Shown here: positions 15,348-31,979 of the stretch, in pieces
How the letters are laid out: each line of letters starts with the position of its first letter
Position numbering within the stretch: position 1 is the stretch's first letter
Origin: Peduovirus P24B2
Length of the DNA: 32,118 nt
Sequence record: NC_049387.1
Strand: one strand, 5' to 3'
Translations under genes and position numbers: made by a program
The notes under the pieces: model-generated
Database searches by the model: none
Seen by the model: only the letters and a program-made list of their open reading frames with translations
What the model was told of the DNA's origin: nothing

Positions 15348-15941
15348 ATGTTTACTAAGCGACGATTAAAAAATATTAACTGGGAGGCAAGTTCAGTGAT
15401 TCTTGCTATGGTTCTCTTTGTTGGAAATATATTTTATACAAATCATCGTGATGATATAAGCATGGAGGCTGAGAGGGACAGTATCAGAACAATGTTTGCA
15501 TATGAAATCGCTAATAACCATCGCGCTCTCACTTTTCTTGATAAAACGAGATATATTGGCTTTGACGAAAATTCGGAGCATTTTGTTGGCGAGCCTTTTG
15601 CCATTAATGTCAAATCATTAGGGGGGCCTCGCTTACAGATTGCATTAAACCAGAGTGATAAAGTGTTTAAATCCTACTTCAGCGAATTAAGTAAGCTTGA
15701 TAAAGAGGATGTTACTCTTCTTATGGACTATTACCATGAGCAAAGCATCCTGCTGGAGCGTGTAAAATCTACGTTACAGAAGATGAAAAGTGGTAATGAT
15801 ATTAAAGTTGATATTGATGGTTACTTATTAGAAGAACACTTCATGAATGAGCTTAATCTTTCTAATATTTTGCTTAAACGCTATAGCCATTTGTTGTCAC
15901 AACACGCCAAAGAACATAAAACAAAAGATTTACATAATTGA
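15348..15941 (+). CDS. hypothetical membrane-anchored protein (moron at the Z/fun position)
   Basis: 197-aa ORF with SD-like AAGGTG 5 nt upstream of ATG; single N-terminal hydrophobic helix (SSVILAMVLFVGNIFY); strongly AT-rich compared with the flanking G and FI genes; no catalytic motif recognised. Confidence 0.6.
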   Translation: MFTKRRLKNINWEASSVILAMVLFVGNIFYTNHRDDISMEAERDSIRTMFAYEIANNHRALTFLDKTRYIGFDENSEHFVGEPFAINVKSLGGPRLQIALNQSDKVFKSYFSELSKLDKEDVTLLMDYYHEQSILLERVKSTLQKMKSGNDIKVDIDGYLLEEHFMNELNLSNILLKRYSHLLSQHAKEHKTKDLHN

Positions 15942-23147: not shown

Positions 23148-24128
23148 TTATAACGTCACTCCGCCTTTTAGTGGATTCAGAGCGACGGCATTTTGCAGGT
23201 AGTCAGGCGCAAGGTGCGCATAGGCCATCGTCTGCTGAATGCTCGCATGTCCCAGAATCTGTTGCAGTGCGATTATATTGCCCCCGTTCATCATGAAATG
23301 GCTTGCGAATGTATGCCGCAGGATGTGGGTTGCCTGATTGGGTGGTATATCAGGTTTCACTCTGCGTAAAATCCCGCAAAATTTCTCATAATCAACTTTG
23401 AATAATTTGGCGCTTGCCTCCTCTTTAACTTTTTTCTCCAGTTCCTCAGAAATCGGCACGGTTCGCTTTTTACCGTTTTTGGTTTTCAGGAAGGTAACCC
23501 TGCAATTTGTAATCTGTGCTGGTTTTAGCGTGGCAACTTCCGTCCATCTTCCTCCAGTGCTCAGACATAAAAGCGCGACAAGTAAGTCATCACCAGCCAA
23601 AACATTTAACAGTTTTTCGATTTCTGCTTTTTCCAGGAACGTCATTTCAGGGTTGGCCTCCGCCAGTGGCGGCAGTCCGTGAATTGGGTGTTGCCCGGAA
23701 AATTCATCCAATTGAATTAATTTTGTGAACATGCCGGATAATCGGTACATGTCACGGTTTATCGTTGCGGCACTGATACCATCACGTAGTCGTATGGAAC
23801 GATAATCCATCAAAGCCCTTTTGCTCATCCGGCTCACTGGTATATCACCTATGCCGCTGATGGTTTTGAGTAGATGATTAAACTCTTTTGTTCCATGCTC
23901 GTGGTTTTGCCCGTGATATTTCCACCAGATGTCCAGCAACTCACTCAAAGTTCGGCGGTCTGCTCGCTGGCCTCCCCATTCTTTCTGACTGGCATTGGCG
24001 ATTGTGTATCGCTCAAATGCTAGTGCTTCAGCTTTTCTTTCGAATTTCCTGCGGATGCGTTTTCCGTCGCGACCGCGAGGTCTAATGTCCACTTCATAGC
24101 GACCATCATCGAGCTTCTTAATTGCCAT
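23148..24128 (-). CDS. int: tyrosine integrase
   Basis: ORF 23148..24158; start placed at MAIKKLDDGRYEVDIRP; C-terminal region HxLRHTFAS...Y (catalytic-Tyr region) typical of tyrosine recombinases; P2 Int position downstream of C. Confidence 0.9.
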   Translation of the reverse strand: MAIKKLDDGRYEVDIRPRGRDGKRIRRKFERKAEALAFERYTIANASQKEWGGQRADRRTLSELLDIWWKYHGQNHEHGTKEFNHLLKTISGIGDIPVSRMSKRALMDYRSIRLRDGISAATINRDMYRLSGMFTKLIQLDEFSGQHPIHGLPPLAEANPEMTFLEKAEIEKLLNVLAGDDLLVALLCLSTGGRWTEVATLKPAQITNCRVTFLKTKNGKKRTVPISEELEKKVKEEASAKLFKVDYEKFCGILRRVKPDIPPNQATHILRHTFASHFMMNGGNIIALQQILGHASIQQTMAYAHLAPDYLQNAVALNPLKGGVTL

Positions 24129-24197
24129 AAGAAAGCCCTCCGGCGCTGTATTCACCATCTTGGTAGCAAATGGTGAAAATGTAATCTTTATATAGAG

Positions 24198-24491
24198 TTA
24201 GCCAATCCTTTTCGCGGAGTGGTTGGACTCTGTTGACTCTGGCCCAATGTGCGCGAGAGCCGGTGCGATTTGTCCTGCGTCCGGCGCGGTTTTATCTGTC
24301 ATAAGCCATAGAGCATATTTTTGGAATGTGGGATGCATAGTGATTTTTAGCAAAGCTGTGCCACCGGGTTCAAAGTTTCCTCCTTCATATTTTTTAAGTG
24401 TGCTTAGCGGTAACTCTATGATTTCACAGAATTTTGATTGGCTTAGCCCTTCAGCCTCACGCAAGGCCTTAATCTTTTCGCTTAATTTCAT
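24198..24491 (-). CDS. C: immunity repressor C
   Basis: 97-aa ORF with helix-turn-helix-like N-terminus and the segment GQIAPALAH that I recall from P2 C (99 aa); divergent from cox. Confidence 0.8.
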   Translation of the reverse strand: MKLSEKIKALREAEGLSQSKFCEIIELPLSTLKKYEGGNFEPGGTALLKITMHPTFQKYALWLMTDKTAPDAGQIAPALAHIGPESTESNHSAKRIG

Positions 24492-24627
24492 TTGACATGG
24501 TGCCTATATAGGGACTAAATTCCCTCAAAACTGGAACCTATATAGGTTCCATTGATTTGAGAATAAACCAGCGTCTAAACGGTTTTGAGTGGTTTAGAAA
24601 GGGCTGGATCCTATGAGGGTACCATAT
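24492..24627. promoter_or_regulatory. C/cox lysogeny-lysis switch region (candidate Pe/Pc promoters and operators)
   Basis: Consensus -35 TTGACA at 24492-24497 with a possible -10 CTAAAT at 24515-24520 (rightward, Pe-like); two copies of the palindrome CCTATATAGG at 24503-24512 and 24537-24546 (second inside an 18-bp perfect palindrome GGAACCTATATAGGTTCC, 24533-24550); motif GGTTTTGAGTGGTTT at 24581-24595. Confidence 0.5.
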
Positions 24628-24900
24628 ATGGACGCTGAAAATTATGTGATTCAGTATCCGCTTGATGCGGTTCATGTGGATAAATTTGCTGATTTATTAG
24701 GGAAGCCAAAGACAGCCGTCAGTGAAATGGTGAAGGCAAATAAATTACCAATTATTGAATTGCGTGATCCTTGCAAACCGAAGGCTCGTGCCGGTGAAAA
24801 ATGGGTTTTCATTCCTGAGTTTAATCGCGCTGTACGTGAGGCGTTTTATAACCGACCGGTTGAACAGCGTGATGCATGGCTTTTGTGGATGGGGTTGTGA
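24628..24900 (+). CDS. cox: Cox excisionase/repressor
   Basis: ORF 24613..24900; start placed at the second Met (MDAENYV, 90 aa) because of the better SD (GAGGG) and P2 Cox being about 91 aa; first gene of the rightward early operon. Confidence 0.75.
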   Translation: MDAENYVIQYPLDAVHVDKFADLLGKPKTAVSEMVKANKLPIIELRDPCKPKARAGEKWVFIPEFNRAVREAFYNRPVEQRDAWLLWMGL

Positions 24901-24902
24901 TT

Positions 24903-25073
24903 ATGAATGAGCCGCGTTGTATTGCTCAGTTACTGCGTAACGAAAGCCCCAGGGCGATTGACTTCACCATCACCCACGGGAAGGGGCGCAAGGGAATCAT
25001 TATCCGCACCAAAAAGCAGAGTCCGTTAAAGAAGGCTCTGACCTTTCTGAAAAGCCGGAGGGTATGGAAATGA
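24903..25073 (+). CDS. hypothetical protein (P2 early-region small ORF)
   Basis: 56-aa ORF between cox and B in the position of a small P2 early ORF; start chosen at MNEPRCIAQLL. Confidence 0.45.
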   Translation: MNEPRCIAQLLRNESPRAIDFTITHGKGRKGIIIRTKKQSPLKKALTFLKSRRVWK

Positions 25074-29077: not shown

Positions 29078-30125
29078 ATGGCGGTAAAAGTTGTTGATCT
29101 TTTTTGCGGTGCTGGCGGTTTAACGCACGGCTTACATTTGGCCGGATTGGACGTTGTCGCAGGCATTGATTTAGAAGGTGAGTGTCGTGTTGCATACGAA
29201 AGCAATAATGATGCACTTTTTATTGAAAAAGATATATCTCTGGTGACAAAAGATGAAATCGAAAATCTTTTTGAAGGGGCAAGTGTTAAAGTATTGGCCG
29301 GATGTGCACCTTGTCAGCCATTTTCTAAATATACTCAGGGAAAAGATAAAAAAAATGATAAAAAGTGGCCGTTATTATATGAGTTTGAACGTTTAATAAA
29401 AGACACGAAACCAGAAATAGTTACAATGGAAAACGTTCCTGATGTGACAAAACATTCTGTCTATGATGATTTTTATAATACCTTAATAGCATTGGGTTAT
29501 TATGTTTGGGCAAATAAGATTGAATGTGTAGATTTTGAGGTTCCGCAAAACAGAGTGAGGCATGTATTACTCGCATCTAAATTTGCGCCGATTTCTCTGA
29601 TGAAACCACAAACATCGGTAAAGCTGACAGTTAGGGATTGCATTGGTAATTTACCTTCGATTGAAGCGGGACAAGCAGATCCAAAAGACCCTCTCCATAA
29701 GGCGAGTAGATTGAGTGAAATTAATCTCAAACGTATTCTACATTCAAAACCGGGGGGGGACATGGAGGGATTGGCCTGCTGAATTAATCGCTTCATGTCA
29801 TGCCAAGAAAAGTGGGCAGGGATATGCCAGTGTTTATGGTCGTATGTCTTGGGATAAACCGAGTCCAACGATAACTACACTTTGTTATGGTTTTGGTAAT
29901 GGACGTTTTGGTCATCCCGAGCAGCATCGTGCAATCTCACTTAGGGAAGCAGCATTACTTCAAACGTTTCCTGTTACATATTCATTTACCCAACCGGGCG
30001 AGCCGATCAAAATGAAAAATGTCGGGCGTATGATAGGTAATGCTGTTCCTGTAAACTTAGGTAAAGCGATTGGTCTTTCAATAGTACATCATTTGAAAGA
30101 GTTTCACCCCGCCGCTCTTAAATAA
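29078..30125 (+). pseudogene. DNA (cytosine-5) methyltransferase, Dcm-like, split by a frameshift in a G8 tract
   Basis: ORF 29078..29782 carries motif I (FCGAGG), motif IV (GCAPCQPFS), motif VI (ENV) and motif VIII (QNRVRH); ORF 29715..30125, in another frame, carries RMSWDKPSPTIT and motif X (GNAVPV); the frames meet at GGGGGGGG 29752-29759; SD GGAG upstream of the ATG; AT-rich. Confidence 0.8.
29752..29759 (+). repeat. homopolymeric G8 tract at the methyltransferase frameshift site
   Basis: cgggggggga read directly; loss of one G would fuse the two methyltransferase frames into a product of about 348 aa. Confidence 0.9.
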
Positions 30126-30823
30126 GCCTGAGTATCAAGATAAGTTTGTATATTTTCAAGGATGCAGTTGAGATAATGAAAAACTTCATCCTTCATTTCT
30201 GTTAGTGTATCAATAGATGTATCTCTGCCTTTGTTTCTAAATGATTCAGAACCATGAGCAAGGTCGTTTCTGGCCTTTTTTATTGGAAGTAAATTGCAAC
30301 CATTTCGCGTTATTTCTGAATCTGTATCTGCTGAGAAGCCATATTTTTCAGCGACTTCTCTAATTTTTCTAGCATCAACATTTCCAGAAAATAACGGATT
30401 TTTATTTGATTGGATAAGTTTTTTGTGAGCGTTTAGCCACTCTTTAAATATAACTTTTGCAATGTTCCCTTGTGAGAAATCTATTTTCCCATTTGGTGAT
30501 TGTAAACTATGAAATGCTACTCTTGTAAGGTTTTCATTTACAGTGTCTGCACATAATGATTCATTAGACATTAAAACATTATGAATGTCTTCTATTGCAT
30601 TGGAAATGGTTGCTTCAATGAGATTGTACAATATAATAAATGCATTAGCCTTTAAAATATGAGTCATGTCAATATCAATGGGTTGTTGTATAGGCGCATC
30701 GCTTGTATTCTCTTTATAGACTAGAGATGGTTTTTTGTTTATTAGTAACTGAATGAATGAGAAGTATTCATTAATATCTTGCATTCTTTCTTGGAAAAGA
30801 ATTTTACTTGTCATCTCCTCCAT
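30104..30823 (-). CDS. hypothetical protein, putative HEPN-like nuclease
   Basis: 239-aa ORF 10 bp downstream of the DUF262 gene on the same strand; C-terminal KKARNDLAHGSESF fits the R-x4-H(G) HEPN motif; very AT-rich; 3' end overlaps the methyltransferase 3' end by 22 nt (convergent). Confidence 0.5.
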   Translation of the reverse strand: MEEMTSKILFQERMQDINEYFSFIQLLINKKPSLVYKENTSDAPIQQPIDIDMTHILKANAFIILYNLIEATISNAIEDIHNVLMSNESLCADTVNENLTRVAFHSLQSPNGKIDFSQGNIAKVIFKEWLNAHKKLIQSNKNPLFSGNVDARKIREVAEKYGFSADTDSEITRNGCNLLPIKKARNDLAHGSESFRNKGRDTSIDTLTEMKDEVFHYLNCILENIQTYLDTQAYLRAAG

Positions 30824-30833
30824 TTACTTGGCC

Positions 30834-31979
30834 TCACTCCATATTTTCATCTTCATTTTCATCTTCGTCGACAATATTTTCTGGAATGTCTTTCCCAAGC
30901 AACTTGTTTTTTACATATTCAATGCGTGCTTTAACTTTGGGTTTAGAGTTGCTGGCATCTGAACGTGTGTGCGTGATAAACTCTTTCGAGTTGATCCAGT
31001 CATCAATATTTTTAGGAACTAAATTGGGTTCTTCCTCTAGTGCTAATGTTGCACCGACGGCAAGAGCTTCGAAACGAATCCTAGGAACAGTGGTGGCGTT
31101 TTTCACCTTTCTGAAACCATTTGGGAAATGTGTATTAATGAATTGGCACATTTTATGAAATTTTTCCGCCAGCATAGCTGCGTTTTCATCTGTATATTCG
31201 GCATTTTTACGTTTTAAATAGGTTGTAAGAAATTCATCAACGCTTTTTCTGAAATCAAGATATTCTTCAGTGTAGGCAAAGTAGCGTAGTGCCAATTCTG
31301 GATATTCAGAGCGACGTTTTCTTGCATCTCCCAAAGGACAGATGCTATGAAATAGAGGATCTTCGGAAATTTCATTGATAAATGCAAGGAATGGCCCATC
31401 ATGGCTACCTTGCCGTTGTTCCATTGTTGTTAGTTTTTTTCCGCCAGTATTCAGACGGTCAAAAATTTCCCTTCTTGTCTCTTCGTCACAATGTTCTGTA
31501 AGTTCAATCATTCGAATAGTTTTTCTATCAAAACGTAGGCGACGGGGAGTACTGAAATCAGAATATTTAAAACCATTGGCTGTGACTAATTTCTGCAGGC
31601 CTTCAAGAGTTAGTTTGTTATTGGTAAATTGGTGTAGGGTTCTTATTCGTTGGCTACCGTCAACAATTTCAAGTCTACCTTCATTTTCACCTGAACCAAT
31701 ATCGGCAACGAATATGTAAGGTATAGGAAGATTTAAAAGCAGAGATTCAATGAAACGGGATTTTTGCTTGTTGTTCCAGATAAACTCCCTTTGGTAGTCA
31801 GGTATAAAAAGCTCTGCCTCATCTTCTTCAAGACCATTCTGAAATTTGTCCACAATAACACTTATCGGGAACTCACGTATTTCATGGTCAGTGATTTTTT
31901 GCATTTCAACTATGCTTTGATCTAAAAGCTCCTTTTCTTCTTTAGTTTTTGGGGTATGTTCTGCTTTTTTTCTCGCCAT
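30834..31979 (-). CDS. DUF262 (ParB/sulfiredoxin-like, GmrSD N-terminal-type) domain protein
   Basis: 381-aa ORF with IPDYQREFIW and EIVDGSQRIRTL, matching the DUF262 hallmarks ([IL]PxFQRxYxW and DGQQR); no HNH/DUF1524-like C-terminal motif seen; acidic C-terminal tail DEDENEDENME; SD AGGA upstream; AT-rich. Confidence 0.7.
   Translation of the reverse strand: MARKKAEHTPKTKEEKELLDQSIVEMQKITDHEIREFPISVIVDKFQNGLEEDEAELFIPDYQREFIWNNKQKSRFIESLLLNLPIPYIFVADIGSGENEGRLEIVDGSQRIRTLHQFTNNKLTLEGLQKLVTANGFKYSDFSTPRRLRFDRKTIRMIELTEHCDEETRREIFDRLNTGGKKLTTMEQRQGSHDGPFLAFINEISEDPLFHSICPLGDARKRRSEYPELALRYFAYTEEYLDFRKSVDEFLTTYLKRKNAEYTDENAAMLAEKFHKMCQFINTHFPNGFRKVKNATTVPRIRFEALAVGATLALEEEPNLVPKNIDDWINSKEFITHTRSDASNSKPKVKARIEYVKNKLLGKDIPENIVDEDENEDENME

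Follow-up and report, generated by a model that had tools for sequence, protein, structure and literature searches.

Operators of the C repressor have been located in three phages of the P2 family, namely P2, P2 Hy dis and Wphi (PMC1904268). In P2 the operator consists of two half-sites of 8 base pairs (bp), which are spaced 22 bp from centre to centre and flank the -10 hexamer of the promoter Pe; in P2 Hy dis the two 8-bp half-sites are spaced 26 bp and flank the -35 hexamer; and in Wphi two half-sites of 10 bp are spaced 34 bp and again flank the -10 hexamer (PMC1904268). The Wphi operator was established by mutagenesis, electrophoretic mobility shift assays and surface plasmon resonance (PMC1904268, PMC1904263). 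In both Wphi and P2, mutation of one half-site leaves repression intact, while mutation of both half-sites abolishes it (PMC1904268). P2 C forms a symmetric dimer whose recognition helices lie 26 Å apart and which resembles proteins that bind palindromes; the asymmetric P2 sites forced a model in which specific contacts are made by only one of the two helices, the other binding non-specifically (PMC2995052). Here, we analysed a stretch of 32,118 nucleotides (nt) from Peduovirus P24B2 (NC_049387.1), termed the window, to which all positions refer, and in it two short palindromes located between the divergent genes C and cox. By analogy with the described systems, these two palindromes very probably serve as operator sites (O1 and O2) for the C repressor of an L-413C-type P2-like phage (Table 1). 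This assignment rests on sequence, geometry, homology, the pattern of natural variants and conservation, while binding, stoichiometry, bending, transcription start sites and autoregulation are what we infer by analogy with P2 and Wphi and from the variant patterns.

A sequence-only reading of the window had noted a TTGACA hexamer, two copies of the 10-bp palindrome CCTATATAGG and an 18-bp palindrome GGAACCTATATAGGTTCC, and the coordinates of all of them proved correct. The 18-bp palindrome (24533-24550) is indeed perfect, but the true perfect length is 20 bp (24532-24551), and the dyad extends to 24 bp with one mismatched pair. The palindromes had also been described as overlapping the -35 hexamer, which was not the case: the O1 core lies within the 18-bp spacer of Pe, beginning 5 bp after TTGACA and ending 3 bp before the -10 hexamer. 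Pe was the only promoter-like site in a promoter scan of 24100-25000, and its start is predicted from this match near 24528, which would place O2 at approximately +5 to +24. The arrangement CAT-TTGACA is common to Wphi, P37 and SW3, and in the annotation of P2 the -35 hexamer of Pe likewise overlaps the C start codon. Counted from the first base of TTGACA, the repeats start at 11 and 45 bp in the window and at 12 and 46 bp in Wphi. Since these offsets and the -35 and -10 hexamers align, the two palindromes are the positional equivalents of O1 and O2 of Wphi. The suggestion that both sites lie on the same face of the DNA was borne out approximately, 34 bp corresponding to 3.24 turns, but the spacing is 29 or 32 bp in close relatives. 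Given these different spacings, helical phasing is therefore not critical, in agreement with the tolerance of Wphi for 6- and 10-bp deletions in vivo (PMC1904263).

Near-identical phage records were compared base by base with the window, the comparison covering 801 bp around the switch. This region was 99.5% identical in the Yersinia phage L-413C (locus L001), 99.8-99.9% identical in R18C (locus L004), 'phage P2' of Escherichia coli O157:H43 T22, MET_P1_103_31 and P2_AC1, and 99.6% identical in the Salmonella phage FSL SP-004 and in vB_YpM_50. The C protein was 100% identical in these near-identical phages, including L-413C, R18C and FSL SP-004. R18C is a plaque-forming isolate that was termed virulent or lytic by its authors (PMC6823313). 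It differed from the window at two of the 801 positions, one in each 10-mer: O1 carried 24511 G>T, and O2 carried 24537 C>T. The chance of such a pattern is about 3e-4. L-413C derives from the temperate phage L-413 as a mutant that is lytic and forms clear plaques (PMC2893161, PMC3448106). In L-413C the C gene was unchanged, and four differences from the window were counted. Three of them were located in the control region, namely 24503 C>A in the O1 core, 24520 T>C in the -10 hexamer and 24549 C>A in the right arm of O2, and the fourth was P51L in Cox; the chance of at least three of four differences falling within 59 bp is about 1.5e-3. Both sites were unchanged in the six other distinct phage records. 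Three of the four operator substitutions of R18C and L-413C affected core positions 1 (twice) and 9. By analogy, these double-site changes match the half-site mutagenesis of Wphi and P2, and both phages look like natural operator-virulent mutants. Such a combination, an unaltered repressor with both operator sites changed, classically marks virulent mutants that are insensitive to the repressor, as in lambda vir. L-413C and R18C, with an intact repressor gene and point changes in both sites, are thus alike to lambda vir and P2 vir. That the changes might have created new promoters was also considered and was dropped, as by inspection no better -10 or -35 hexamer had arisen. In the near-identical phage HQ103 the palindromes were intact and C carried a 7-bp deletion; HQ103 no longer forms plaques when full-length C of this class is provided in trans, and the Pe fragment of HQ103 is an active promoter (PMC10321612).

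Homologues of C with 59-86% identity were obtained from a scan of species-representative genomes and from an IMG/VR scan. Prophages of Enterobacter hormaechei and Dryocola, in which identity to C is 61% and 73%, respectively, keep the helix STLKKYE, while cox and the flanking regions are different. Both prophages showed CCTATATAGG or CCCATATAGG at both sites, spaced 29 bp, with one site in the promoter spacer and the other just downstream of the -10 hexamer. Five IMG/VR classes with an STLxKYE helix showed CCTAWWTAGG at both sites, spaced 32 bp, and these sites were often embedded in dyads of 12-24 bp, e.g. CTCCTAATTAGGAG and GCCTATATAGGC. In the IMG/VR locus 2597489912_000002 (L077; C 86% identical), CCCATATAGG is found at O1 and its exact reverse complement, CCTATATGGG, at O2; conservation thus does not extend to the orientation of the sites, which would be expected for sites that are each read by a symmetric dimer. 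The sites of P37 (helix LGTLKNYE), TTAATGAC and GTCATTAA, are inverted relative to each other, and Wphi and SW3 (helix LGTVKNYE) have direct repeats of the TTGGTGAC type. In a hand-compiled set of 18 sites from E. hormaechei, Dryocola and IMG/VR, C1, C2, A4 and T7 were invariant, and G9 and G10 were each present in 17. The base just outside the core was T/A where A, S or G occupied the position equivalent to Ser35 of P2 C, and A or G where this position was K. Ser35 has been proposed to contact bases (PMC2995052), but the correlation is only suggestive, because it is phylogenetically confounded. Dyad symmetry was significant in 11 of 22 operator regions surveyed, in 10 of these 11 at the O2 position, which suggests that dyad-symmetric sites may be common among C-type switches. 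As a tentative extension, in which our confidence falls somewhat short of even, dyad-symmetric operators of 16-20 bp might be common and perhaps ancestral in P2-family C, with the direct repeats of P2, Wphi and P2 Hy dis as a degenerate special case; the STLxKYE sub-family would then read CCTAWWTAGG, with specificity set by the flanks (co-varying with the position of P2 Ser35) and by the spacing, and L-413C and R18C would be natural operator-virulent mutants.

The proposal of a two-site C operator at Pe was thus supported by Wphi-like geometry, by the variants L-413C and R18C and by conservation across genera. The switch resembles that of Wphi (immunity class III) in that TTGACA lies directly against the C start codon and the -10 hexamer is flanked by two 10-bp sites with a spacing of 34 bp; C of Wphi also has 97 amino acids and is 56% identical, and the two cox genes share 87% DNA identity. 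The need for both sites in repression of Wphi has its counterpart in the double changes of R18C and L-413C. In contrast to TATTGGTGAC of Wphi, which are non-palindromic direct repeats, the putative sites of the window are dyad-symmetric, and because each site has this symmetry a direct and an inverted arrangement are indistinguishable. The likeness to P2 comprises a homologous C, the same gene order, a presumed convergent logic of Pe and Pc, and half-sites flanking the -10 hexamer of Pe. The sequence-only reading had stated that P2 C recognises direct repeats at a shorter spacing, which is correct: the P2 repeats GTTTAGAT are two 8-bp sequences 22 bp apart (PMC1904268), compared with 10 bp and 34 bp in the window. 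Its suggestion of a specificity other than that of P2, i.e. a different immunity type, was likewise upheld, C being only 43% identical to P2 C and having a different recognition helix (LSTLKKYEG in the window, YGTLSYYES in P2, LGTVKNYES in Wphi). C aligned with the P2 C structure 2XCJ/2L49 over residues 3-97 (E=2e-21); the alignment was gapless with Wphi C and showed small terminal indels against P2 C, and the C-terminal block GQIAPALAH was conserved. While the asymmetric sites of P2 needed the one-helix-specific model (PMC2995052), the symmetric sites of the window do not. P2 Hy dis shares the family of small C repressors and the two half-sites at Pe (PMC1904268), but, compared by description, its sites flank the -35 and not the -10 hexamer, and their spacing and sequence are different.

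Dyad-symmetric sites of 14-20 bp bound by helix-turn-helix (HTH) dimers also provide a likeness to lambdoid phages (434, P22 c2) and to 186 CI, and P2 C superimposes on the N-terminal domain of P22 c2, with the helices 26 Å apart in both (PMC2995052). In contrast to these systems, C has no C-terminal oligomerisation or cleavage domain, only two sites are present, with no OR1-3 array and no distal sites in a search of the window, and the bases conserved in this class are the inner 10 bp and not the outer arms. The two-domain repressor (about 190-240 amino acids) and the multiple operators that mark switches of the 186 CI or lambda CI type were not found, C comprising 97 amino acids with a single HTH. 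The features of a P2-type switch were found, i.e. a small HTH homologue of C, the gene order int-C/cox-B-A and two half-sites spanning Pe. The sites of the window are not non-palindromic direct repeats such as those of P2, Wphi and P2 Hy dis; this is treated here as a property of the three studied phages, and not as defining for the family.

The switch region was present in 420 of 5426 complete E. coli genomes, among them ATCC 8739, in all cases on the chromosome and in all but one with at least 99% identity. Because of these genomes and the near-identical phages, this can be regarded as a known and very common immunity type, differing from those of P2 and Wphi; the class is that of L-413C. 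The names of C clusters, which were searched for an immunity-class label, gave only the generic 'helix-turn-helix'. Of the 420 resident prophages, 315 were exact over 24489-24553, 407 over the -35 hexamer and O1, and 415 over O2 with its flanks (24528-24557). In 80 of the 420, TAAATC was found in place of the -10 hexamer TAAATT; the most conserved -10 base is lost in this variant, and the palindromes are intact. Four variant prophages were sampled, of which three had changes in the -10 hexamer (two TAAATC and one TAAACC; loci L012-L014) and one had a change at 24498. Such -10 changes should, judging from the sequence, cripple lytic transcription, and the TAAATC prophages may be locked out of lytic growth. 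The lytic plaque-formers were altered in the palindromes or in C, and the sampled resident prophages in the -10 hexamer of Pe. This pattern is an observation and not a statistic, because the 80 TAAATC genomes are probably clonal.

With the palindromes as O1 and O2, dimers of the 97-amino-acid C would occupy both sites and bend the DNA, as C of P2 and of Wphi do. C bound to O1 and O2 would exclude RNA polymerase from Pe and keep cox-orf78-B-A silent, and this repression would maintain lysogeny and make the lysogen immune to superinfection by phages of the same class. A change in one site would be tolerated, while loss of both would result in a repressor-insensitive (virulent) phage. Because the C start codon abuts the -35 hexamer of Pe, the Pc transcript must cross O2 and then O1 leftward, and the same operator can therefore mediate both positive and negative autoregulation of C. 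By silencing the convergent Pe, C might stimulate its own synthesis, which it would limit at high occupancy; both modes of autoregulation are described for P2 C (PMC3448106). The dyad symmetry of the sites (14/16 and 20/20 bp) could allow specific contacts of a symmetric C dimer with both halves of each, and specific binding by both helices, with a flexible TATATA centre, appears plausible.

The O2 palindrome might instead serve mainly to fold into a hairpin in RNA, either where the Pe transcript begins or in the leader of Pc/C, which would stabilise or attenuate the transcript; O1 would then be incidental. The stem-loop at 24524-24561 had a predicted RNA folding energy of -16.4 kcal/mol (z=-5.5), a terminator-like pattern with a TTGATTTG tail was observed at the hairpin, and hairpins were predicted at the same place in Wphi (-11.1 kcal/mol, approximately 1665-1700 of locus L002) and P37 (-16.1 kcal/mol, locus L008). 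In these two phages the hairpin arms CAAAAGG/CCTTTTG flank O2, which lies in the loop, while in the window O2 itself is the stem. A hairpin, however, leaves the identical 10-mer in the promoter spacer unexplained, and in relatives without the outer stem the core is still conserved at both sites. The substitution 24537 C>T of R18C retains pairing (U-G) in the Pe RNA, the hairpin of SW3 is weak (z=-0.5), almost no covariation was found in an alignment fold of four classes, and an Rfam scan of 24100-25000 at E<=1 gave no match. It is unlikely that the palindrome exists mainly for this purpose; a hairpin as an additional role layered on O2, and not as a replacement for the operator, fits best. Binding of a protein other than C, such as Cox, H-NS or IHF, to the palindromes must be considered very unlikely. 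H-NS does bind the Pe and Pc fragments of HQ103, silencing Pe at 21 °C (PMC10321612), and the TATATA centre is AT-rich and flexible, but the signal from variants and conservation is on the G/C bases (CC/GG) and not on the AT core. Furthermore, the motif co-varies with the C helix, and the E. hormaechei and Dryocola prophages share the motif but have a wholly different cox gene. Recombination directionality factors of the Cox type bind direct repeats arranged in tandem at a spacing of about one helical turn, as described for Apl (PMC7498355), and no such repeats were found at the palindromes.

Palindromes of 10 bp are not rare as such, 19 being present in the window, and CCATATATGG, 85 bp downstream of O2, is a third one of related sequence, but it is scarcely credible that two short AT-rich palindromes without function stand here by chance. 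The same 10-bp palindrome did not occur twice within 60 bp in any of 300 first-order Markov simulations, O2 is the only palindrome of at least 14 bp in the 32 kb, the placement is that of O1 and O2 of Wphi, and the motif is conserved across genera. With at most one mismatch, CCTATATAGG occurred only at these two places in the 32 kb (expected 0.33), and two such copies anywhere were reached in 3 of 100 shuffles. At two mismatches no excess of further copies was seen elsewhere in the 32-kb window, nor were distal operator copies, as in 186-style looping, found there beyond chance.

Several points weigh against reading the palindromes as operator sites of C. The hairpin could account for part of the length of the O2 palindrome, and, because H-NS binds the Pe fragment of HQ103 (PMC10321612), another protein also uses the AT-rich region of Pe. 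The autoregulatory part of the mechanism is conjecture, because the scan for Pc gave only weak candidates. The label 'virulent' for R18C does not have a lysogeny test behind it, and the same authors call Wphi 'lytic'. The change 24503 C>A of L-413C also alters an AGG on the minus strand, 11 nt before the AUG, which may be the Shine-Dalgarno sequence of C, and the change at 24549 in the same phage lies outside the 10-mer. Little weight attaches to conservation among the E. coli prophages, as identity is at least 99% over the whole region.

The novelty of the C operator proposed here is modest, as the type of switch, its gene content and the plan of two half-sites are already known, and the twist is the dyad symmetry of the sites. 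A full-text search for CCTATATAGG retrieved only eukaryotic CArG-box papers and unrelated papers. In the accessible literature, no account was found of the operator of this class or of its substitutions in L-413C and R18C, an earlier mention in the primary papers on the immunity classes, the Wphi switch and the L-413C genome being possible. The immunity type occurs in approximately 8% of complete E. coli genomes (420/5426), and L-413C, which has the same type, is used worldwide in plague diagnosis. Knowledge of the operator would provide a simple molecular account of the lytic growth of L-413C and R18C, whose repressor gene is intact, and would indicate which bases to alter for virulent derivatives or for restored temperance. 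A C protein with symmetric sites would be a convenient system for the puzzle of P2 C, a symmetric dimer on asymmetric DNA, and the classes with a CCTAWWTAGG core but varied flanks and spacing form a natural series for the evolution of immunity specificities. The known logic of the P2 switch is unchanged by these findings.

Table 1. Features of the C-cox control region of the window and the genes bordering it.
Feature	Position	Strand	Remarks
C, immunity repressor	24198-24491	-	Open reading frame, 97 amino acids, HTH, P2 C family; Pfam HTH_3
Pe -35 hexamer TTGACA	24492-24497	+	Abuts C start codon; promoter scan 10/12, 18-bp spacer
O1, putative operator site 1	24500-24515		Core CCTATATAGG at 24503-24512; extended GTgCCTATATAGGgAC, 14/16 dyad
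Pe -10 hexamer TAAATT	24516-24521	+	Promoter scan; aligns with TATATT of Wphi, P37 and SW3
Predicted stem-loop, 5' end of Pe transcript	24524-24561	+	O2 palindrome plus CUCAAA/UUUGAG
O2, putative operator site 2	24532-24551		Core CCTATATAGG at 24537-24546 in perfect 20-bp palindrome TGGAACCTATATAGGTTCCA
Candidate Pc region	24551-24579	-	Weak matches; analogy with annotated P2 Pc, 38-43 bp before cox
cox, first gene of early operon	24628-24900	+	90 amino acids, Phage_Cox, Pfam PF10743, E=1e-23

The order of open reading frames is P2-like, with int (23148-24158) and C on the minus strand, followed by cox on the plus strand, orf78, B and onward to A. C and cox diverge around a short control region, and the same annotation is found in L-413C, KC618326 and RefSeq E. 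coli; in AY251033 C is labelled 'immunity repressor'. On the minus strand, an out-of-frame ATG at 24496-24498, 7 nt upstream of the C start, opens an open reading frame of nine codons (MSNEIKRKD), and this ATG sits 4 nt after a minus-strand AGG that is supplied by O1. The reading frame is absent in Wphi and is therefore probably without significance. For cox, the start at 24613 given by the open-reading-frame finder (95 amino acids) was rejected, as alignment with Wphi and P37 and most database annotations favour the ATG at 24628. The upstream ATG at 24613 is missing in Wphi, the cox starts of homologues align with 24628, and cox is annotated with 273 nt in KC618326, MN016939 and RefSeq E. coli, so that 24628 is most likely the start. 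GAGGG at 24616-24620 is a candidate ribosome-binding site for this ATG. The ATG is overlapped by a third perfect 10-bp palindrome, CCATATATGG (24622-24631), which has the CC-(A/T)6-GG composition of the operator core with its centre out of register and is absent in P37 and Wphi; it could be a weak third site or due to chance.

In a relaxed scan of the minus strand for Pc, candidate matches were TTTAGA-17-ATCAAT (24579-24574 and 24556-24551) and an extended -10 element TGgTTTATT (24570-24562). The consensus match of these was 7/12 at best, compared with 10/12 for Pe at the position of Pe in Wphi and P2. Pc of HQ103 has been reported to be non-functional (PMC10321612). The segment 24552-24600 contains repeated TAAAC-type motifs, AATAAACC at 24562, TCTAAACG at 24574 and an inverted GGTTTAGAA at 24591, which are candidates for Cox-binding boxes or Pc elements. 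TTTGAG occurs twice in this segment, and a G>A polymorphism at 24573 is present in HQ103, FSL SP-004 and many prophages.

Outside the switch, an open reading frame of 197 amino acids (15348-15941) was observed between the tail-fibre genes and FI, at the position of the P2 Z/fun cargo, and gave no match in Pfam or PADLOC. A cargo ('TO') region follows gene A (29078-31979) and contains three genes. One encodes a C-5 cytosine methylase that is truncated to its N-terminal half (234 amino acids). The other two form a pair on the opposite strand, encoding a GmrSD_N/DUF262 protein of 381 amino acids, whose best PADLOC hits were NsnA and PD-T4-2_A, and a HEPN protein of 239 amino acids (MAE_28990-like); this pair probably functions as a module of anti-phage defence, at a site known as a hotspot in P2.

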